Positions 1,550-41,578 of a stretch of DNA of 64,000 nucleotides are shown here, piece after piece. The notes beneath the pieces are model-generated. The model had not been told where the DNA came from and ran no database searches. It was given only the letters and a program-made list of their open reading frames with translations. This stretch comes from an uncultured Gammaproteobacteria bacterium (lineage in GTDB: Bacteria > Patescibacteriota > Microgenomatia > JALYQM01). The stretch covers positions 1,280,826-1,344,825 of the forward strand of contig CAYOFQ010000001.1 in assembly GCA_964403585.1 (NCBI GenBank), read 5' to 3'. Both the position numbers and the translations under genes were made by a program. Each line of letters begins with the position of its first letter. Within the stretch, counting starts at the first letter, position 1.

Positions 1550-1768
1550 ATGAACCAAAAAACCAAACTAATCATTTCTATTGGGCTTAATATTTCCCTG
1601 ATAATAACTTTAATCACAATACTCATTGGAATTTTCGGCACCACCGCCTTTGACTTTTTCTTATTTAAAAAGACGTTACCTACCATATGCACTGAATCTC
1701 AAAAAAACGGTACTGAGCTGCGTGCTATTAATCCGGACGGCACTACCGCCGACATATGCCAGTTCTAA
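1550..1768 (+). CDS. Small membrane protein (72 aa), hypothetical
   Basis: ATG ORF with N-terminal TM helix and two C-terminal Cys; TTGCTT-18-TACACT promoter-like boxes end 6 nt before the ATG (leaderless arrangement); no homology recognised. Confidence 0.3.
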   Translation: MNQKTKLIISIGLNISLIITLITILIGIFGTTAFDFFLFKKTLPTICTESQKNGTELRAINPDGTTADICQF

Positions 1769-3357
1769 GGTGCATATCGACCATATGCCTGGGCGGCAGG
1801 ATTTCGGGGTCGGAAATCTGAACCAAGTTGCGGATCAAGCCGCACATTAGCTCCACCACCATTACTCAATGAGGACGGCGCAACGCCGCTTGAACCGTCG
1901 CCGGCATTCTCATACGCACTGTTCGAGGTACCACCATTAGTCCGATCCGAAATATTGTACGAATCGCCGGATTTAGCTAACAAATTACGGTACATTTTTA
2001 CTCCTGATGTATCACCCGAAACCTGCATATTCGAAGGACCAAGATTATTATAAAACGTGTTGTAACGAACAGTTATATTTCTCGGACCACCACTTCCTGA
2101 AGGCGGACCCATTTTTACGCCGCGCCCGCGCGGACTGTTCGCAAAAATGCATCGCTCTATAATACCGTTGCTTGTCTCCGAAGCATAAATCAAATGATCC
2201 TGAACATCGGTATGTCCGCCATCGGTATTATCATGCATATAACAATTGGCTATTCTCCAGTTAGAAGCTCCTCCTGAAATAAGCACATTTGCATATCCGT
2301 GTGAAGGTCCGACCTCGCCATTAATATACGTCCACCCGTTGCCTTTTAAACTAACCATATGTGGTCCGTACGAATCGGACCCCCAGCGGAAATTTATACC
2401 ATCAATAACCGAACCACTGGAACCCGTCACCGATGAAATACCTTCCACCCAAACCTTTTCTCCGGGATACGCTTTCACTGTTGCCCCCGAAGGGATGGTC
2501 ACCGTAAGTTTTCCGTACGTTCCACCATGCACACACAAAGTTTGTCCGGAACCAAGTGAACTGATCGCCGATGCTAACGATTGTCCTGGCGAAACGGAGC
2601 TCCCCGAACAATTCCCCCCGCCGGTCACTGGCGGCAGAGTGAACAAAGTCGGAACCGGTGTTGCGGTTCGGTTTGGCGTCGGTGTTGGTGTAACCACTGG
2701 CGTCGGCACACTTACGACTCCTCCTGAAGAAGCTTTTAACGCCACCAGGTACATTGAATATGCCGGATTTTGAGCATCACTTGCCGCATGAAATTGCACG
2801 TTAGTACCTGAAGCATAATTTTTTGACCAGATATCATATAAACCGATTAATCCCTGCTCGTTCTTCCGCAATAAATATTGATTTATGTTGGATAAATCGT
2901 CTGTAGTCCCCCGTGTATAATTTTGCGAAATCCAGTTTGGAACACCAATCCCAGGTATATGACGGGTAAAAATATATACCGTAGCAGCTTTTTGCAACGT
3001 AAGTCCCCAATCGAATGTAGTCAAATCTTTAACACTGGCGTTTCCAAGTTGCACATACGGTAGATTAATATATGTCGATGCAGGATTAAAAAAAGTAAAC
3101 CGGCTATCATCACTGTACATCTGCTGTCCGGCAACTAAACAGCTTTTCTGCATAGTTGTAGTAAAAAAACTTGTATCACACGCAGCACTGGTTCGATCCA
3201 CTTGGCTAAACTCACCACGCTTAATCGGACCATACATAAGTATTCCAAGTAGAAATGTAAAAAATGCAGCCACTCCCACTACCGGAATATGTTTTCTAAA
3301 TTCAAACATGAATTTATTATCGAAAATTAAGCTACTGATGTCAATGCGACTGAGCAC
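1765..3357 (-). CDS. Membrane-anchored surface protein: conserved N-terminal module + Pro/Thr linker + right-handed beta-helix (pectate-lyase-like) domain
   Basis: N-terminal TM (HIPVVGVAAFFTFLLGILMYG), TPTPTP linker, Gly/Asn/Asp-rich C-terminal repeats typical of parallel beta-helix; N-terminal about 170 aa clearly paralogous to CDS 15378-17069. Track start is GTG; an internal ATG (MFEFRK, about nt 3309) is an alternative start. Confidence 0.65.
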   Translation of the reverse strand: MLSRIDISSLIFDNKFMFEFRKHIPVVGVAAFFTFLLGILMYGPIKRGEFSQVDRTSAACDTSFFTTTMQKSCLVAGQQMYSDDSRFTFFNPASTYINLPYVQLGNASVKDLTTFDWGLTLQKAATVYIFTRHIPGIGVPNWISQNYTRGTTDDLSNINQYLLRKNEQGLIGLYDIWSKNYASGTNVQFHAASDAQNPAYSMYLVALKASSGGVVSVPTPVVTPTPTPNRTATPVPTLFTLPPVTGGGNCSGSSVSPGQSLASAISSLGSGQTLCVHGGTYGKLTVTIPSGATVKAYPGEKVWVEGISSVTGSSGSVIDGINFRWGSDSYGPHMVSLKGNGWTYINGEVGPSHGYANVLISGGASNWRIANCYMHDNTDGGHTDVQDHLIYASETSNGIIERCIFANSPRGRGVKMGPPSGSGGPRNITVRYNTFYNNLGPSNMQVSGDTSGVKMYRNLLAKSGDSYNISDRTNGGTSNSAYENAGDGSSGVAPSSLSNGGGANVRLDPQLGSDFRPRNPAAQAYGRYAP

Positions 3358-3362
3358 ACACC

Positions 3363-3391
3363 TTGCCCTTTATCTCTCTCGAAAGTATAAT
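3363..3391 (+). promoter_or_regulatory. Sigma70-like promoter TTGCCC-17-TATAAT upstream of tRNA-Ile(UAU)
   Basis: TTGCCC at 3363-3368, 17-nt spacer, TATAAT at 3386-3391, about 40 nt upstream of the tRNA 5' end. Confidence 0.45.
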
Positions 3392-3430
3392 TGACCTACT
3401 GTGGTGCCAAACCATAGCGTGTTCGTTAGT

Positions 3431-3503
3431 GGAGCTATAGCTCAGTTGGTAGAGCGACGAGCTTATACCTCGTTGGTCCTAGGTTCGAGTCCTAGTAGCT
3501 CCA
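3431..3503 (+). tRNA. tRNA-Ile (anticodon UAU)
   Basis: Cloverleaf: acceptor GGAGCTA/TAGCTCC, D-arm GCTC-AGTTGGTA-GAGC, anticodon stem ACGAG/CTCGT with loop CTTATAC (anticodon TAT), T-arm CTAGG-TTCGAGT-CCTAG, discriminator A. Confidence 0.85.
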
Positions 3504-3535
3504 CAAAATTTACGCTCAATAAATACCCCATAGTA

Positions 3536-3564
3536 TTTACAAAAACACCATTTTGTGCTATAAT
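3536..3564 (+). promoter_or_regulatory. Strong extended -10 promoter (TTTACA-17-TGcTATAAT) immediately downstream of the tRNA
   Basis: TTTACA 3536-3541, 17-nt spacer, TG at 3556-3557, TATAAT 3559-3564; would start a transcript near 3571 running through a hairpin-rich leader toward CDS 3793. Confidence 0.5.
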
Positions 3565-3792
3565 ACATTCGTTTATAGTGTAGTCAGCTCCTTCGCGAGC
3601 TCAAATTACACCGTAAACCTGAGCTTTAAATCTCAGTATGTTCTTTTACATGAGAGGCAATAAGTGACTTTTTTCAAGTCACCTATTCAGACAATAGATC
3701 ATTTCCTGTACGGGATGACCAGCTACTAACTTTATTGGTATCTGCTCGTCCCGTACAGACCCAAGAAAACCGCTTATAAGCAAGGAGTTCAA

Positions 3793-4446
3793 GTGAACAC
3801 TCAACAACGCTATCGCCTGATCGGCGCCCTCACCGCCACCGCCCTGCTCCTGTCACTCGTCGTCGCCTGTGTCATTCGCGTGACCAGCGAAACTCACATC
3901 GAGATCGGCAGCAGCAACCTGAGTGGCGAGCAGTTCATTCTCGAGGCGCTAGACAACGCCCGCACGCCGCACACCCCCGAGAACGAGCTTCTTCGCGATT
4001 ACCTGCAGCACAGCAATAGCACCAGCGAGCTCCCGCTCGAGGCCCTGCGCGACGCGAAGATCAACCCGATTAACAACCACCCGTACGCCCGACAGGCATC
4101 GGCCAACTACTACCCGGCGGAGGGGGAGTACATAACACTGTTCTTCTACAACTCCTCCACACAGCAAGAGGTCGCCATCCGTTTCGACGGTATCGCCTAC
4201 GAGCCACTGCACGGCTGGCAGTTCGTTCAGAACGACGACCACATCACCTTCGACATCGTCGGGCCTGACGGCTATCGCTACGGGAATCTCCGCATTGTGT
4301 TGACCGGCGAGTACTACCAAAAACAGTGGCTAACATGGCAGGAGCCATGGAGCTACGAAGGCGCCATCGCCGGCCCCTACATCGAAGTTCCCAACGGCCG
4401 CCCCAGCCAGCCCGCACCGCCGGTCAACCGCGATCAAATCGCCTAA
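3793..4446 (+). CDS. GC-rich hypothetical membrane-anchored/secreted protein (217 aa), compositionally foreign
   Basis: GTG start 5 nt after a perfect AAGGAG Shine-Dalgarno; strong GC-rich third-codon bias (CTG, GCC, CGC, ATC...) contrasting with AT-rich codons of all neighbours; N-terminal hydrophobic anchor LIGALTATALLLSLVVACVI; no recognisable family. Confidence 0.75.
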   Translation: MNTQQRYRLIGALTATALLLSLVVACVIRVTSETHIEIGSSNLSGEQFILEALDNARTPHTPENELLRDYLQHSNSTSELPLEALRDAKINPINNHPYARQASANYYPAEGEYITLFFYNSSTQQEVAIRFDGIAYEPLHGWQFVQNDDHITFDIVGPDGYRYGNLRIVLTGEYYQKQWLTWQEPWSYEGAIAGPYIEVPNGRPSQPAPPVNRDQIA

Positions 4447-4501
4447 CTGGCACTACGAAAGCAGCGGCGACCGCCTGACATGTACATGAGCCTGTAGGAG
4501 G

Positions 4502-4568
4502 TTTTCCAAAGAGATGATCACGTCTGAGGACGGGACCAGACGACCGATATGGTCATCTCTTTGGAAAA
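4502..4568. repeat. Nested inverted repeat (19-bp outer stem, 6-bp inner stem) downstream of the GC-rich gene
   Basis: TTTTCCAAAGAGATGATCA (4502-4520) pairs with TGGTCATCTCTTTGGAAAA (4550-4568) with one mismatch; the 29-nt loop contains CGTCTG...CAGACG. Confidence 0.6.
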
Positions 4569-4602
4569 CAACTTACTTGCCTCTCATGCTACGTTAAGCA
4601 AC

Positions 4603-4631
4603 TTGCAGATTTCCCCTTAAAAGTTCATAAT
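4603..4631 (+). promoter_or_regulatory. Candidate glmS promoter positioned for a leaderless mRNA
   Basis: TTGCAG 4603-4608, 17-nt spacer, CATAAT 4626-4631, ATG of glmS at 4638 (6 nt after -10); no SD. Confidence 0.4.
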
Positions 4632-4637
4632 GCACTC

Positions 4638-6395
4638 ATGTGTGGAATATTTAGCTACATCGGTAAGAAGAACACTGCCGCTGAAACAGTAATTGACGGA
4701 TTAAAACATCTTGAATACCGTGGCTATGATTCCTGGGGTATCGCATATATTTCCGGTGCGCAATTAAAAACACACAAAGCTGTTGGCAAAATAGTGCATG
4801 TCCCCGACTTTCCTGAGACAACCATGGCAATTGGACACAACCGCTGGGCAACTCACGGAGGAGTCACCGTCGAAAATGCCCATCCGCATGTCGATTGTAC
4901 CGACACAATCGCCGTTGTGCATAACGGTATTATTGAGAACTATCAGGAACTGCGTAATCAGCTTCAGGCCAAAGGTCATAAGTTCAAATCTCAAACAGAT
5001 ACCGAAGTATTTGTCCATCTGGTTGAAGAATATTCACCCGCCGGATTCGAAGAAGCGGTCAAAAAAGCCTTCAGTGAAGTTCATGGTCGAAACGGCTTTG
5101 TCGTAGAACATAAACTGGAAAAAAAACTGATCGGAATTCGCAACGGATCACCAATGATTATTGGAGTCGGAGATAACGAATTCTTTATTGCATCAGACGC
5201 CTCTGCTTTTCTCCCCTACACCCAGAAAGTTATCTTTCTTGAAGATAATCAGGGCGCTGTTATCACCGAAAAAGAATGCTCCTGCTTCGACGTTGCTAAA
5301 AACACTACATTTAAACCACATATACAAACAATTAATTGGACAGTAGATCAGGCCCAAAAAGGTGAATACGACCATTTCATGCTTAAAGAAATCATGGAAC
5401 AACCAAAAACAGTCTATGCCGCTTCTTCGCAGAATAAAAAAGATATTATCGAGTTTGCCAACGCCATCAAAAAAGCCTATGGTTCCTATATCGTAGCCTG
5501 TGGCACCGCCAGCTATGCGGCACTCTATGGCACCTATGCTTTTGCCCGCATCGCTAATCGACACATTAATCACTCCGTCGGATCAGAATTTGAAAACTGC
5601 CAAAAATTCATTACCGATGAAAGTCTCATTATCGCCGTCTCGCAAAGCGGTGAAACAGCAGATACCTTAATGGCTATCGACGAAGCAAAAAGTAAAAATG
5701 CCAAAACTGCGGCCATCGTCAACGTGATGGGTTCAACTTTAATGCGCACGGTAGACATATCATTTCTTTCACACGCCGGTCCGGAAATAGCGGTAGTATC
5801 AACAAAAGCTTTCATTTCCCAGCTGTCTGTATTACTCCTGCTCGCCTACGCAACCAACGGTAAATATGAGGAAGGAAAAGAGCTTCTGAAAAAAACAGCC
5901 AAAGAATTGGAAAAAATGCTCAACCCCACCGTTCTGCAAAATATTAAACAAATTGCCTTAAAACTAAAAAACAGACAGCATGTCTATTGCATCGGCAAAG
6001 GTCAGAACTACCCGATTGCACTCGAGTCAGCGTTAAAAATTAAAGAGGCCAGCTACATCCACGCCGAAGGCTTTGCGGCAGGTGAATTAAAACACGGTGT
6101 CATTGCCTTAATTGAAAAAGATACACCCTGTATTGTCGTGTTTGCCAATGACGAAGATAAAGCCTACATGATTGGCAGTGCCATGGAAGTGAAGTCACGC
6201 GGTGGACATATCATTGGCATCGGTCCCGAGTATAATGAAATATTCGATGAATTTATTCAAACACCGGATATCCCTGAAACATCGCCAATTATCAACACTC
6301 CGGTTATTCAGCTGATTGCCTACTATTTGGCAGTTGCCCGTGGCAATAATCCGGACCGCCCGCGCAATCTTGCCAAATCGGTAACCGTAAAATAA
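4638..6395 (+). CDS. glmS: Glutamine--fructose-6-phosphate aminotransferase (isomerising)
   Basis: Begins MCGIF (N-terminal Cys nucleophile), class-II glutaminase domain followed by two SIS domains, 585 aa, ends ...SVTVK. Confidence 0.95.
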   Translation: MCGIFSYIGKKNTAAETVIDGLKHLEYRGYDSWGIAYISGAQLKTHKAVGKIVHVPDFPETTMAIGHNRWATHGGVTVENAHPHVDCTDTIAVVHNGIIENYQELRNQLQAKGHKFKSQTDTEVFVHLVEEYSPAGFEEAVKKAFSEVHGRNGFVVEHKLEKKLIGIRNGSPMIIGVGDNEFFIASDASAFLPYTQKVIFLEDNQGAVITEKECSCFDVAKNTTFKPHIQTINWTVDQAQKGEYDHFMLKEIMEQPKTVYAASSQNKKDIIEFANAIKKAYGSYIVACGTASYAALYGTYAFARIANRHINHSVGSEFENCQKFITDESLIIAVSQSGETADTLMAIDEAKSKNAKTAAIVNVMGSTLMRTVDISFLSHAGPEIAVVSTKAFISQLSVLLLLAYATNGKYEEGKELLKKTAKELEKMLNPTVLQNIKQIALKLKNRQHVYCIGKGQNYPIALESALKIKEASYIHAEGFAAGELKHGVIALIEKDTPCIVVFANDEDKAYMIGSAMEVKSRGGHIIGIGPEYNEIFDEFIQTPDIPETSPIINTPVIQLIAYYLAVARGNNPDRPRNLAKSVTVK

Positions 6396-6452
6396 AGAAA
6401 CCCCTTGACCTCGCTTTACAGACGTTCTACAGTAATATTTACGAGGAATAAT

Positions 6453-6605
6453 ATGAAAGCTTCAAAAGTAACCAAAATCGGCCTGGCTGCACTATCAGCA
6501 GCCTCACTACTTGCATCATTTGCCACACCGGCATTTGCTCAAGAAAAAAATACTACTACCCCTGGCACAACTATTACAATTTCAAAAACTAATACTAGTA
6601 AATAA
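6453..6605 (+). CDS. Small secreted Thr-rich peptide (50-aa precursor; about 21-aa mature part)
   Basis: ATG at 6453 after GAGGAA RBS; signal peptide MKASKVTKIGLAALSAASLLASFATPAFA then QEKNTTTPGTTITISKTNTSK; the track's TTG-extended start at 6405 was rejected; TTGACC-17-TACAGT promoter-like boxes at 6405-6433. Confidence 0.5.
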   Translation: MKASKVTKIGLAALSAASLLASFATPAFAQEKNTTTPGTTITISKTNTSK

Positions 6606-6621
6606 AAGTAAAGGAAATACT

Positions 6622-6843
6622 ATGAATAAAAAAATTGTCTCACTAATCGCTATCGGCACTTCGGTTTTAATGCTCGCTGCCTGCACTCAAAGTCCAGCTC
6701 CCGAAGCACAGGTACAACCGACAACCCCGGCAGCTACTTCCGAAGAAGTAATGCCGAACGCATCAATCTCGGGTCAAATTGATATCTCCGATGATGCGGT
6801 AACCCAGCGCGAAGCAACCATGTCAAATAAAAAACAACAATAA
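6622..6843 (+). CDS. Small lipoprotein (73 aa)
   Basis: ATG at 6622 after AAAGGA; signal peptide with lipobox LAAC (MLAAC-TQS); Pro/Thr/Ala-rich mature part; the track ORF start at 6511 is an upstream extension. Confidence 0.55.
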   Translation: MNKKIVSLIAIGTSVLMLAACTQSPAPEAQVQPTTPAATSEEVMPNASISGQIDISDDAVTQREATMSNKKQQ

Positions 6844-6875
6844 GCCGTAGAAATAAAAAGTCGATAAAATAAAAA

Positions 6876-6903
6876 AACGACGATTTATTCGTCGTTTTTT
6901 TTG
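6876..6903. terminator. Bidirectional rho-independent terminator between convergent genes
   Basis: A-run, stem ACGACGA / TCGTCGT with 5-nt loop, then T-run (8 T) on + strand. Confidence 0.7.
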
Positions 6904-6925
6904 ATAACTTATGTAATCTGAGATA

Positions 6926-7537
6926 TTATTTATCGAATACCGACTCTGGACTAACGTCTGCCGAAGCAGTAGCTTTCTCAATTATCCGCTGGGTTGCCTT
7001 GGATCCGGCAAAGTGGATAGTATTCTCTGATCCCTCTCGCACTGTGATAATATTAATTCCTTGAATGGTCGAAGGCACTACATCAACTCGGGAACCGGAC
7101 TCAATTGGGGTAGTATCAAGTCGACCTGGTATCGGTCGATTTTCAGGGGTTCGATAATGTGTTAATGCGCTCTTAACCAAATGCCCCGCCAGCTGCGCAT
7201 CCCCGTTCAGTACCGCATGAGTATTATCTAAGGCGGTATCGTTGGCTACGGTATGGCTAAAAGTCTCTAAAGGTTGCCCGTCTGCGAGATATTGCTGTAA
7301 ATCAGCGCTTAAATGGAGCATCCGGTCAACAGCTATAGTTGTTGAATTAAGTACGCTTTCCTGAACATCTTTTGGCAATTGATGCCCACGAAGATCGACC
7401 AAGATTCTATCGGTCATTTCAAGAGCTAGGGTGCTGACCACGGCTCGATTAATATCTCGACTAATCGAAATCGGAGTAGTTTCGGTATTACGATCATTCT
7501 CAATACGAATAGTTACATTAGATTCTTGTTCTGTCAT
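6926..7537 (-). CDS. Hypothetical protein (203 aa), no recognisable domain
   Basis: Long ORF with an ATG start, followed downstream by the bidirectional terminator at 6876-6903; no TM, no motif identified. Confidence 0.55.
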   Translation of the reverse strand: MTEQESNVTIRIENDRNTETTPISISRDINRAVVSTLALEMTDRILVDLRGHQLPKDVQESVLNSTTIAVDRMLHLSADLQQYLADGQPLETFSHTVANDTALDNTHAVLNGDAQLAGHLVKSALTHYRTPENRPIPGRLDTTPIESGSRVDVVPSTIQGINIITVREGSENTIHFAGSKATQRIIEKATASADVSPESVFDK

Positions 7538-7599
7538 AGGGGTAAAAATAAATATAATAACGCGAGTATACTACTCCGCATAGTGTTATAATAGCCTCT

Positions 7600-7899
7600 A
7601 TGATTGCAGCAAGTATCCTTTTCAAACTTCCCTTAACTGCTAATTGGAGCGAACTACGCCAAAAGGCAAAATCCCGGGCAGAATCCTTTTACCAGGGCAT
7701 GGCCGGACTGCATACCAAAGCCTTTGTCTTAAATGAAGAAACCGGCGAATACGGCGGCCTGTACCTGTGGGAATCCCGCGAAGCGCTTGATACGTTTATA
7801 AACTCGGATACCTTCAAAGGGTCACAGGAACTGTTTGGTGCTCCGGAAATAAAAATATTTGACGTGATTGCTCATATTGAGCACGGAAAATTAATTTAA
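7600..7899 (+). CDS. YdhR-like (Dabb/ABM-fold) putative monooxygenase
   Basis: 99 aa; FKLPLT...TGEYGGLYLWESREA...IFDV pattern matches the YdhR family; TGtTATAAT extended -10 at 7584-7592 ends 7 nt before the ATG (leaderless arrangement). Confidence 0.65.
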   Translation: MIAASILFKLPLTANWSELRQKAKSRAESFYQGMAGLHTKAFVLNEETGEYGGLYLWESREALDTFINSDTFKGSQELFGAPEIKIFDVIAHIEHGKLI

Positions 7900-7917
7900 A
7901 TTGAAAGGAACTATACA

Positions 7918-8325
7918 ATGTTTGTTTCACACGCCTTTATTACACATAACAACAAAGTATTACTTTTCCATCGGGATAACAAACCAACCATCAAAGATCC
8001 GGATTGCTGGGACATTATCGGTGGCCATAGTGACGAGGGCGAAACTCCCGACCAAACCCTTATCCGGGAAATTCAGGAAGAACTAAGTATTACGCCGAAA
8101 GTATTCAACCAAATCCTAAGCGAACCCGACGTCTGGAATGTTGGAACGTATCTCTACCATATCCAACTTTCCGACGAGGAAATCAGCCAAATTAAGTTAG
8201 GTAATGAAGGCCAGGAAGTAAAATTTTTTCAACCCGAGGAACTGACAAATCTTAAGCTAACACAAAATCTTACTAAATATTTGAAAAATTACCCGTCGTT
8301 ATTACCGGATCTCCTCAGTAAATAG
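7918..8325 (+). CDS. NUDIX hydrolase
   Basis: Nudix box GGHSDEGETPDQTLIREIQEELSI; GAAAGGAA RBS upstream of the ATG. Confidence 0.85.
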   Translation: MFVSHAFITHNNKVLLFHRDNKPTIKDPDCWDIIGGHSDEGETPDQTLIREIQEELSITPKVFNQILSEPDVWNVGTYLYHIQLSDEEISQIKLGNEGQEVKFFQPEELTNLKLTQNLTKYLKNYPSLLPDLLSK

Positions 8326-8330
8326 CAACT

Positions 8331-9212
8331 ATGTGGTATTCGTATGCTTTCTTATCAGCTGTTCTGTATTCCTTTCGCGGTGTTTTAGACAAACGCATAA
8401 TCTCCCGCACCAACAAATACGTCCTGGGATTCGCGATGCGGGCTTTTGCCATACCCTTTTTTCTTATCCCCTTGATCATCGACCACTCGCTTATTCCTCC
8501 CGTTTCTCAACTTTCCCTAAAATTCTGGCTACCAACACTGATTGTCAGCATGATCATGACTCCACTTGAAACAATCTTCTATTACGAATCCATCAAAGAC
8601 GAGGAAATTTCTCTGGCGTTACCAATTTTAAGTCTTTCACCAATCATTACCGTTCTAATAGGCATCATAACCATCGGCGAAATACCTAAGTTCCTTGGTA
8701 TTCTGGGAATATTTTTTATTCTCTTTGGTGTCTATGCCCTAAAAATTGGCCATACCAGACACGGCCTACTTGAACCACTTCGCCATCTACACAGCAATCG
8801 CAGTGTTCGTTTAATGGCCGTGGTTATGTTATCTGCATCCATCGGCGGATTGCTGGATAAAATAGCCGTCCAAGCGTCCAATCCGTTTTTCTACGCCGCA
8901 GTCAACTTCATCCTGCTATCGGCAAAATTATTTACAATTACTTTAATTAAAGCAAAAAATCATCTTCGAGATCTTAAAAACCACTTCCGAAAATTTTTTA
9001 TTTTGGGTGGCGTTGTTGCCGGATACTCTATCTTCTATCTATTAGCCTTAAATACCGGCATCACCTCTTACGTCATTGCCATCAAAAACGCCAGCATTTT
9101 ATTCACCATTGTCCTAGGTATTACTCTATTTAAGGAAAAGGACCGCAAAGCAAAAATACTGGCTGGAGCTTCAATATTTATCGGGCTAATACTAATAAAA
9201 GTTTTCGGCTAA
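8331..9212 (+). CDS. EamA/DMT-superfamily transporter (about 10 TM)
   Basis: 293 aa, two repeats of 4-5 TM helices typical of EamA domains. Confidence 0.6.
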   Translation: MWYSYAFLSAVLYSFRGVLDKRIISRTNKYVLGFAMRAFAIPFFLIPLIIDHSLIPPVSQLSLKFWLPTLIVSMIMTPLETIFYYESIKDEEISLALPILSLSPIITVLIGIITIGEIPKFLGILGIFFILFGVYALKIGHTRHGLLEPLRHLHSNRSVRLMAVVMLSASIGGLLDKIAVQASNPFFYAAVNFILLSAKLFTITLIKAKNHLRDLKNHFRKFFILGGVVAGYSIFYLLALNTGITSYVIAIKNASILFTIVLGITLFKEKDRKAKILAGASIFIGLILIKVFG

Positions 9213-9226
9213 GTAGTTCGAATAAA

Positions 9227-9418
9227 CTATACTTTCCTATTTTCTTCAACCAAAGTATGTATTTTAGTTAGAACCTCTTCCAATTCGCTGACATTTGTTC
9301 CCATCCTTGTTTGAAATTCATCGGGATCACCGAGCAAAAGTTCCCGTGCTTCATTGAGGGCATTATTAATAATGTATAACTCCTTTGCAGTAAGTGTCAC
9401 CGCAACCGTATCTGACAT
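9227..9418 (-). CDS. Small helical hypothetical protein (63 aa)
   Basis: Track ORF starts at a TTG (9499); an internal ATG (MSDTVAVTL...) preceded by AGGAG at a proper spacing is the likely start. Confidence 0.4.
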   Translation of the reverse strand: MSDTVAVTLTAKELYIINNALNEARELLLGDPDEFQTRMGTNVSELEEVLTKIHTLVEENRKV

Positions 9419-9501
9419 AAAATCTCCTAACATCATATCTGTATAAAGATTAATAGTTAAACTATAAAACAAACAATTACGCTTCACAACTTCTTTCAAA
9501 C

Positions 9502-9528
9502 AAAAAAAAAGAGCCCCTCAAGGACTCT
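9502..9528 (-). terminator. Rho-independent terminator downstream of the minus-strand tRNA-Ile
   Basis: On the minus strand AGAGUCC-UUGA-GGGGCUCU hairpin (two G-U pairs) followed by a 9-U run (A-run 9502-9510 on +). Confidence 0.55.
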
Positions 9529-9538
9529 TCTTAATTCG

Positions 9539-41498: not shown

Positions 41499-41578
41499 GG
41501 GCTCGTAGTTTAGTGGTACGAATTAGGGACTAATTCGCACCGCGTTCCATCGCAGGGGTCCGATTCCCCTCGAGTCCA
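41499..41578 (+). tRNA. Non-canonical 80-nt tRNA-like element (possible degenerate or unusual tRNA-Ser(GGA)-like gene)
   Basis: Good acceptor stem (GGGCTCG/CGAGTCC, one G-U), T-arm AGGGG-TCCGATT-CCCCT and a GG-containing D-loop, but the central arm is a 6-9-bp palindromic hairpin CGAATT-AGGGACT-AATTCG whose loop lacks U33/R37; lies 27 nt upstream of tRNA-Pro. Confidence 0.35.

Follow-up and report, generated by a model that had tools for sequence, protein, structure and literature searches.

A gene of foreign composition between tRNA-Ile(UAU) and glmS in an uncultured bacterium, and its probable recent acquisition

How did a single gene of about 60% GC come to lie in DNA that averages little more than 42%? 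The question is raised by a stretch of 64,000 nucleotides from an uncultured bacterium (assembly GCA_964403585.1, contig CAYOFQ010000001.1, positions 1,280,826 to 1,344,825 of the forward strand; hereafter 'the window', numbered from its first letter), in which a 654-bp coding sequence (CDS) at 3793-4446 on the + strand stands between a gene for tRNA-Ile(UAU) and glmS. An earlier note, made from the sequence alone, had correctly placed the gene between those two neighbors and had proposed a recent gain from a high-GC donor. The analysis described here supports that proposal through the foreign codons and amino acids of the gene, the sharp bounds that confine the foreign composition to one gene, and the mismatched content of the same slot in the one close relative that could be found. 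Further support is drawn from a second assembly, a promoter, a ribosome binding site and a 'lipobox' motif in the product. The complete model, in which a single gene was recently acquired by horizontal transfer into a variable slot, together with proposals for its expression and for a lipoprotein as its product, is considered likely, and the narrower statement that the CDS is real and foreign is held with higher confidence than the model as a whole.

Foreign composition of the coding sequence at 3793-4446

The CDS is foreign at three levels: in its base composition, in its codon usage and in the amino-acid make-up of its product. That it is GC-rich and biased toward G and C in third codon positions had been judged by eye in the earlier note, and is confirmed by sliding-window GC, third-position GC and codon-bias analyses. 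Its GC content is 60.7%, against a mean of 42.4% for the 64-kb window, and the GC maximum of the entire window (0.615, measured in 654-bp windows with a mean of 0.424 and a standard deviation, sd, of 0.032) is located at position 3821. GC at the first, second and third codon positions (GC1, GC2 and GC3) is 0.61, 0.41 and 0.80, respectively; this order (GC3 > GC1 > GC2 in the annotated frame) is as it should be if the sequence truly codes for protein and derives from a GC-rich genome. Measured against a native reference set (the 50 other open reading frames, ORFs, of at least 150 residues in the window), the GC3 of the CDS (0.803) lies 8.1 sd beyond the native mean of 0.401 (sd 0.049, maximum 0.526), and the genes that neighbor it have GC3 values of 0.38-0.42.

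Native codon usage in the window is flat, and a codon log-likelihood score was accordingly non-discriminating; the Karlin codon bias, computed relative to the pooled native genes, was therefore used instead. By that measure the CDS scores 0.876, as compared to 0.326 +/- 0.065 (maximum 0.48) for native genes, a displacement of 8.5 sd. C occupies 56% and G 25% of its third positions; CGC encodes 10 of 12 arginines, AGC 8 of 13 serines, GCC 13 of 18 alanines and TAC 12 of 14 tyrosines. Lysine makes up 0.9% of the 217-residue product, as opposed to 6.5% of native proteins, while proline, glutamine, asparagine and tyrosine are enriched relative to those proteins. The combination of foreign codon usage and low lysine content indicates that the gene was long resident in a GC-rich genome, rather than having merely been recoded; from its GC3 of 0.80, the GC content of the donor is estimated at about 60% or more.

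The bounds of the foreign composition are sharp. A maximum-likelihood fit with two breakpoints places the composition shift at 3814 and 4475, corresponding to the CDS plus part of its 3' flank. The 3' flank maintains a GC content of 0.53-0.60 up to about position 4540, whereas the 5' flank (3700-3790) is at 0.42-0.50; thus, the earlier description of both immediate flanks as strongly GC-rich holds for the 3' side and fails for the 5' side.

The second-highest local GC content (about 0.55, especially at 2400-2700) is found within a gene for a 530-residue beta-helix protein (1765-3357, - strand) that lies beside the tRNA gene. It results from the composition of a threonine- and proline-rich linker in that protein (PTPVVTPTPTPNRTATPVPT), and does not mark a further segment of foreign DNA.

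The slot between tRNA-Ile(UAU) and glmS

The CDS and the features that surround it in the slot are arranged as follows:

3431-3504, + strand: gene for tRNA-Ile with anticodon UAU, the left anchor of the slot (ARAGORN; Rfam RF00005, 75.5 bits)
3536-3564, + strand: strong sigma-70-like promoter, TTTACA-17 nt-TGcTATAAT, in DNA of native composition (consensus scan, 11/12)
3571-3618, + strand: 48-nt hairpin, the first part of the 5' leader (RNA fold)
3619-3636, + strand: small hairpin followed by a T-run, terminator-like
3706-3758, + strand: upstream hairpin with 24-nt arms (3706-3729 and 3735-3758; 83% complementary) and a 5-nt loop, present in the minimum-free-energy fold
3782-3787, + strand: Shine-Dalgarno (SD) sequence AAGGAG, separated by 5 nt from the GTG start at 3793 (direct reading)
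3793-4446, + strand: CDS of foreign composition, encoding an orphan protein of 217 residues (ORF call, GC, codon bias)
4482-4594, unstranded: long imperfect palindrome or hairpin 3' of the stop codon, with core arms at 4494-4520 and 4550-4576 (inverted-repeat search, folding)
4638-6395, + strand: glmS, native, the right anchor of the slot (Pfam GATase_6/7 and SIS)

An abrupt change of composition, confined to about 660 bp and coinciding with a gene that matches nothing elsewhere, is also what might be produced by an error of assembly, in which a piece of high-GC DNA belonging to a different organism of the sample was joined into the contig. Such a chimera, raised as an alternative in the earlier note, would require two false joins approximately 0.7 kb apart. 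A 4336-bp contig in the Logan assembly of run SRR16481187 is identical, base for base, to positions 2575-6910 of the window; both junctions fall within it, flanked on either side by at least 1.2 kb of native sequence, and the 217-residue protein is recorded in both the NCBI assembly (on a contig of 1,573,555 bp) and the Logan assembly of that run. Logan is a second, k-mer-based assembly, the read set of which is possibly shared with the first. Both junctions lie outside repeated sequence; the ORF is full length, free of frameshifts and internal stops, and correctly spaced from its SD sequence; and glmS retains its own upstream signals. The identical second assembly, the non-repeat junctions and the intact, properly spaced ORF together render a double false join unlikely, and contamination or chimerism is regarded as a very improbable origin for the gene.

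If the gene belongs to the genome, is it a newcomer? The best matches to glmS are found in Peregrinibacteria, Peribacteria and other genomes of the candidate phyla radiation (at 50-65% identity), which suggests that the recipient is a Peregrinibacteria-like bacterium of about 42% GC with a genome of about 1.57 Mb. This lineage is very thinly sampled. A single close genome was found (L002; CAZHTP010000004), with a glmS that is 85% identical in amino acids and 77% identical in nucleotides, and it alone among the relatives found displays the same arrangement of tRNA and glmS: relatives of glmS at 62-65% identity are preceded by a pgi-like gene, a fragment from JGI (84% identical) begins inside glmS, and an exact scan of metagenome contigs for the tRNA produced no match.

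The window and L002 are collinear through an ATPase resembling type IV coupling proteins (80% nucleotide identity), the beta-helix protein (72%), tRNA-Ile(UAU) (100% over 77 nt; 5119-5192 in L002), glmS and tRNA-Ile(GAU). Within this otherwise syntenic pair the slot itself (3508-4636 in the window, 5196-5999 in L002) displays no similarity at all, and is thus variable. The gene is missing from the syntenic site in L002, which contains instead an unrelated ORF of 228 residues with native GC (about 0.39) and an N-terminal hydrophobic anchor; this was the outcome of the presence/absence comparison that had been proposed as a check on foreign origin. The L002 slot protein matches only itself in database searches, and no remnant of its gene is found in the window. 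In both genomes, then, the slot appears to hold a membrane-anchored orphan gene, and only that in the window is compositionally foreign. The unameliorated GC3 of the latter indicates an event much younger than the split between the window's genome and its nearest sequenced relative.

The parallels between the two slot genes might be taken to mean that they are orthologues, and that the gene in the window is a native, fast-evolving surface gene that acquired its composition in place. The two agree in position, orientation, length (217 and 228 residues) and the presence of an N-terminal hydrophobic anchor, and both proteins begin with the residues MN. However, no similarity between them can be detected (BLASTP E-value 1.1), and there is no known process by which GC3 could rise in place from 0.40 to 0.80, with near-total loss of lysine, in one gene whose neighbors remain at 0.38-0.42. 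An origin of this kind is therefore hardly credible, even less so than an error of assembly.

Differences between the two genomes extend to the other side of glmS. Over the 3-kb stretch that separates glmS from tRNA-Ile(GAU) (6411-9537 in the window, 7772-10633 in L002), no nucleotide or tblastx similarity is seen, with the exception of a small lipoprotein bearing the motif SGQIDISDDAVT(A/Q)REAT (about 6628-6843 in the window, 7807-8070 in L002). Genes appear to be turned over throughout the interval from tRNA to tRNA. At the opposite extreme, the ATPase (3-1454 in the window, 1885-3336 in L002; identified through weak Pfam matches to TrwB and TraG-D_C) is 97% identical in protein sequence between the two genomes, at 80% nucleotide identity; as compared to the 85% amino-acid identity of glmS, this indicates unusually strong purifying selection on the ATPase.

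Proposed entry and expression of the gene

The position of the gene downstream of a tRNA had led to the suggestion that it occupies a classic integration 'hot-spot'. The location is as described, and the signs of integration are missing. No direct repeat of the 3' end of the tRNA is found within 3300-4800, and Pfam searches of ORFs of at least 100 residues revealed no integrase or transposase across 1-18 kb of the window (approximately 14 kb downstream of the gene and 3.4 kb upstream). The tRNA gene ends at 3504 and foreign composition begins at about 3800; the 288 bp between the tRNA and the start of the CDS are native-like in composition and include the promoter. The locus resembles tRNA-linked integrative islands in its placement downstream of a tRNA, its foreign composition and its variability between relatives, and differs from them in the absence of a duplicated tRNA end and of an integrase, and in the interposition of native-composition DNA with its promoter.

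Could the gene instead have been carried in by a small mobile cassette, whether of the integron type (in which an attC recombination site follows the ORF) or of a type that lacks a transposase and is delimited by terminal inverted repeats? The latter possibility is raised by two sequences that flank the gene:

3649-3665, unstranded: left copy of an inverted repeat (CATGAGAGGCAA-TAAGT; a 12-nt perfect core, extended)
4571-4588, unstranded: right copy of the same repeat, from the same search, contained in the right-hand arm of the 3' palindrome

The two copies agree at 17 of 18 positions, with one gap, and bracket 940 bp. Their score of 29 compares with a mean of 16.9 for shuffled sequences (sd 2.3, maximum 30); one shuffle in 500 reached that score, and the repeat was chosen post hoc. 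No further copy is present in the 64-kb window, and no target-site duplication is visible by eye at the ends of the repeat. Moreover, the native composition of the DNA between the left copy and the gene does not fit an element that is foreign throughout. The inverted repeat may be a product of chance or the scar of a recombination event.

The layout of the gene also recalls an integron cassette. The gene is a short orphan ORF of different GC content, as is typical of cassette cargo, with its own ribosome binding site and a resident promoter upstream. It is followed by the 113-nt imperfect palindrome (with arms of 27 nt that are 85% complementary), which directly abuts the heptamer GTTAAGC at 4593-4599; the heptamer GCCTAAC at 4441-4447 overlaps the stop codon. 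By eye, these fit the box consensus motifs GTTRRRY and RYYYAAC, respectively. To evaluate this resemblance, attC covariance models (R1, R2) were constructed from class 1 integron arrays on plasmids, with the pairing of R and L boxes imposed; the first model was based on nine aligned attC sites and the second on 22. The models scored held-out attC sites (those of dfrA5, dfrA30, dfrA27 and orfD and one more) at 20-57 bits, and the first recovered every attC site in the arrays. The first model found no match in the window; with filters off, there was none at 4441-4599, and across the whole window the second model produced only noise of 10 bits or less, located elsewhere. GTTRRRY is also absent from the 5' boundary. 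The integron reading is therefore rejected, there being no attC by validated models and no integron integrase, attI site or array. Taking both types of cassette together, such an origin is quite improbable.

For the preferred reading of a single-gene acquisition, the lack of recognizable mobile-element machinery fits DNA uptake followed by illegitimate recombination. A segment of about 0.7-0.8 kb, from an organism of about 60% GC or more, would have replaced or filled the slot, which reaches from tRNA-Ile(UAU) to the glmS promoter. As the most probable and most economical mechanism, free DNA would have been taken up, and illegitimate or microhomology-mediated recombination, rather than a site-specific element, would have placed it behind the resident promoter.

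That promoter (3536-3564), which includes an 'extended -10' TG, probably drives the foreign gene, to judge from its sequence and position; in L002 a promoter-like TTGAAA-17-CATACT is seen by eye at a similar place after the tRNA. Transcription would proceed through a structured 5' leader of 220 nt (the segment 3571-3800 folds at -75.4 kcal/mol, with a z-score of -7.65 relative to shuffles), and would reach a CDS for which the GTG at 3793 is the earliest possible in-frame start. Both the GTG start behind a perfect AAGGAG and the bracketing of the gene by hairpin-forming inverted repeats (3706-3758 and 4494-4576) had been read correctly in the earlier note. The 3' flank (4440-4640) is strongly structured both as RNA (z-score -5.16 relative to shuffles) and as DNA (z-scores of -5 to -6), and the 3' palindrome is probably the end or a stabilizer of the transcript. 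Searches of 3300-4750 against Rfam (E-values up to 1) returned only the tRNA, a sub-threshold antisense match over the tRNA and chance miRNA hairpins; no glmS ribozyme or riboswitch was matched in the flanks, and a scan of the whole window at the gathering threshold yielded only tRNAs. No tandem repeats were found, and no credible small ORFs in the flanks.

Several smaller observations concern the same signals. With the near-consensus promoter immediately before them, the 48-nt hairpin and the hairpin with its T-run (3536-3640 in all) may be more than a leader, either an attenuator or a separate small RNA (about 70 nt); L002 has no counterpart of this arrangement. The right arm of the upstream hairpin (3737-3750) is complementary at 12 of 14 positions (86%) to the anticodon arm of tRNA-Ile(UAU) (3456-3469), probably by chance.

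The product, its significance and minor observations

The 217-residue protein has no detectable relatives among approximately 15 billion public proteins. A word-indexed search of 5.8 billion protein clusters and a full phmmer search of 1.84 billion representatives each returned only the query itself; tblastn (against six-frame translations) and blastn searches of phages and plasmids gave no similarity, and back-translated scans of viral and metagenome contigs gave no match. Likewise, no family is matched in Pfam, NCBIfam, PHROGs or the sequences of the PDB (the best NCBIfam score, to DbpB, is 13 bits, as compared to a cut-off of 250), in keeping with the earlier failure to recognize one. The search for homologues that had been suggested as a route to the taxonomic affinity of the donor was thus carried out, and did not provide one.

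What can be predicted is how the protein begins. The N-terminal membrane anchor or signal that had been noted previously can be specified more closely as a lipoprotein signal peptide:

3793-3870, + strand: predicted lipoprotein signal, made up of a signal peptide at residues 1-25 and Cys26 as the site of lipidation, with lipobox V-V-A-C (pattern match)

The rule applied was a pattern of the PROSITE PS51257 type, which demands a lysine or arginine among the first seven residues, an uncharged hydrophobic stretch, and after it the sequence [LVI..][ASTVI..][AGS]-Cys with the cysteine at residues 15-35. It matches TALLLSLVVAC (residues 16-26), with Arg6 in the n-region and an uncharged hydrophobic core; the protein contains one hydrophobic segment, at its N-terminus (the 19-residue Kyte-Doolittle maximum is 2.5, at residue 10). 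The same rule also matches small native lipoproteins encoded beyond glmS, on its downstream side, in the window and in L002, from which it appears that the lineage makes such lipoproteins; it does not match the L002 slot protein. The product is accordingly similar to lipoproteins processed by Lgt and signal peptidase II in its basic n-region, hydrophobic core, lipobox VVAC and Cys26 (all as predicted), and dissimilar to known lipoproteins in that its mature domain belongs to no described family.

A lipid-anchored surface protein is therefore predicted. Following export by the Sec pathway, it would receive a lipid at Cys26 and lose its signal peptide to signal peptidase II, leaving a domain of about 190 residues tethered to the outer face of the membrane. 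That mature domain is rich in aromatic residues (tyrosine and tryptophan) and probably part helical and part beta, with a proline-rich tail; its role would most plausibly be in cell-surface interaction, whether attachment, recognition or protection.

A number of points weigh against the model of recent acquisition, expression and surface display. Neither a donor nor a homologue is found in any collection searched, and the argument for a high-GC donor is one of composition. The placement of the recipient derives from matches to glmS, and L002 carries the submitter's label 'Gammaproteobacteria'. The presence/absence comparison involves one close relative, with shared genes that are about 77-80% identical in nucleotide sequence, and unrelated gene content is common at such a distance (the window also differs from L002 at 6411-9537). 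Expression is predicted from sequence signals; the codon usage of the gene is poorly matched to the recipient and may limit translation; and transcripts begun at the upstream promoter could be cut short at the terminator-like hairpin (3619-3636). Finally, AlphaFold2 run on the single sequence gave mean confidence (pLDDT) values of 43.6 for the full-length protein and 41.6 for its mature part, so that the models are unusable; only an N-terminal helix reaches the high 80s or above.

The extreme codon mismatch, and the placement of that hairpin between promoter and gene, are equally at home in a reading in which the gene is an intact but functionless passenger, recently taken up, not yet purged and not usefully expressed, with a lipobox and ribosome binding site inherited from its donor. 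The gene is known from one genome in one sample, and its unameliorated GC3 implies little time for selection. On the other hand, its ORF remains intact over its full length, a strong SD sequence is correctly spaced before it, and a promoter matching at 11/12 lies upstream; furthermore, the quick loss of useless DNA is usually assumed for small genomes. The passenger reading is judged unlikely, and is to be taken more seriously than an origin by assembly error, as cassette cargo or in place.

How ordinary is such an event? Islets of odd composition next to tRNA genes are a textbook phenomenon. In Patescibacteria, genes and islands gained by horizontal transfer are common and occupy up to 13% of genome length, and most individual transfers come from other Patescibacteria, according to Gios et al. 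2025 (PMC12455944). Like other compositionally atypical, acquired genes and islets of bacterial genomes, including those catalogued in Patescibacteria, the gene is atypical in GC, codons and amino acids, is present in one genome of a syntenic pair, lies downstream of a tRNA and encodes an accessory protein of surface type. Unlike a multi-gene island, it is a single 654-bp gene, without an integrase, direct repeats or mobility genes, for which no donor lineage or homologue can be named; and unlike the transfers that occur mostly within Patescibacteria (PMC12455944), its composition is far from that of its own genome. It is thus an ordinary kind of event, a compositional islet, that is unusual in having an untraceable source.

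The hosts of most bacteria of the candidate phyla radiation are unknown, and recent, unameliorated transfers offer a rare clue, available from sequence, to their partners. In the most extended form of the acquisition reading, the gene would be a trace of an unsampled high-GC host or prey, and the surface lipoprotein would have been kept for attachment to, or evasion of, that partner. This is a distinctly unlikely proposal; if it were true, the donor lineage (or a mobile gene pool) would be essentially unsampled, and the gene could be used as a probe for the host in the community. The value of the locus is tempered by the absence of homologues, as neither donor nor function can be assigned. It nonetheless represents a clean import of a single gene into a small genome in the absence of recognizable mobile-element machinery, in a slot where the two sequenced members of the lineage carry different membrane-anchored orphan genes, and the gene should not be removed as contamination during curation of the genome.

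Some minor observations concern the two anchors of the slot and another tRNA locus. In both the window (4603-4637) and L002 (5966-6000), glmS is preceded by no SD sequence; a hexamer resembling a -10 element (CATAAT in the window, TATACT in L002) ends 6 nt before its ATG, and a -35-like hexamer lies 17 nt upstream (both by eye), which suggests that the glmS mRNA may be leaderless, a condition that would be conserved in both genomes. A tRNA-Ile with a UAU anticodon is uncommon in bacteria, in which AUA is mostly read by a lysidine-modified tRNA with the anticodon CAU; this tRNA is fully identical in L002, although protein genes common to the two genomes reach only 72-80% nucleotide identity, and the promoter motif upstream of its gene (AAAGTATAATTGAC) is common to the window and L002. 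Lastly, the segment at 41499-41578, immediately upstream of tRNA-Pro(CGG), scores 37 bits with the Rfam tRNA model (above its gathering score) and is not called by ARAGORN; perhaps this is a tRNA of unusual form, or a degenerate one.

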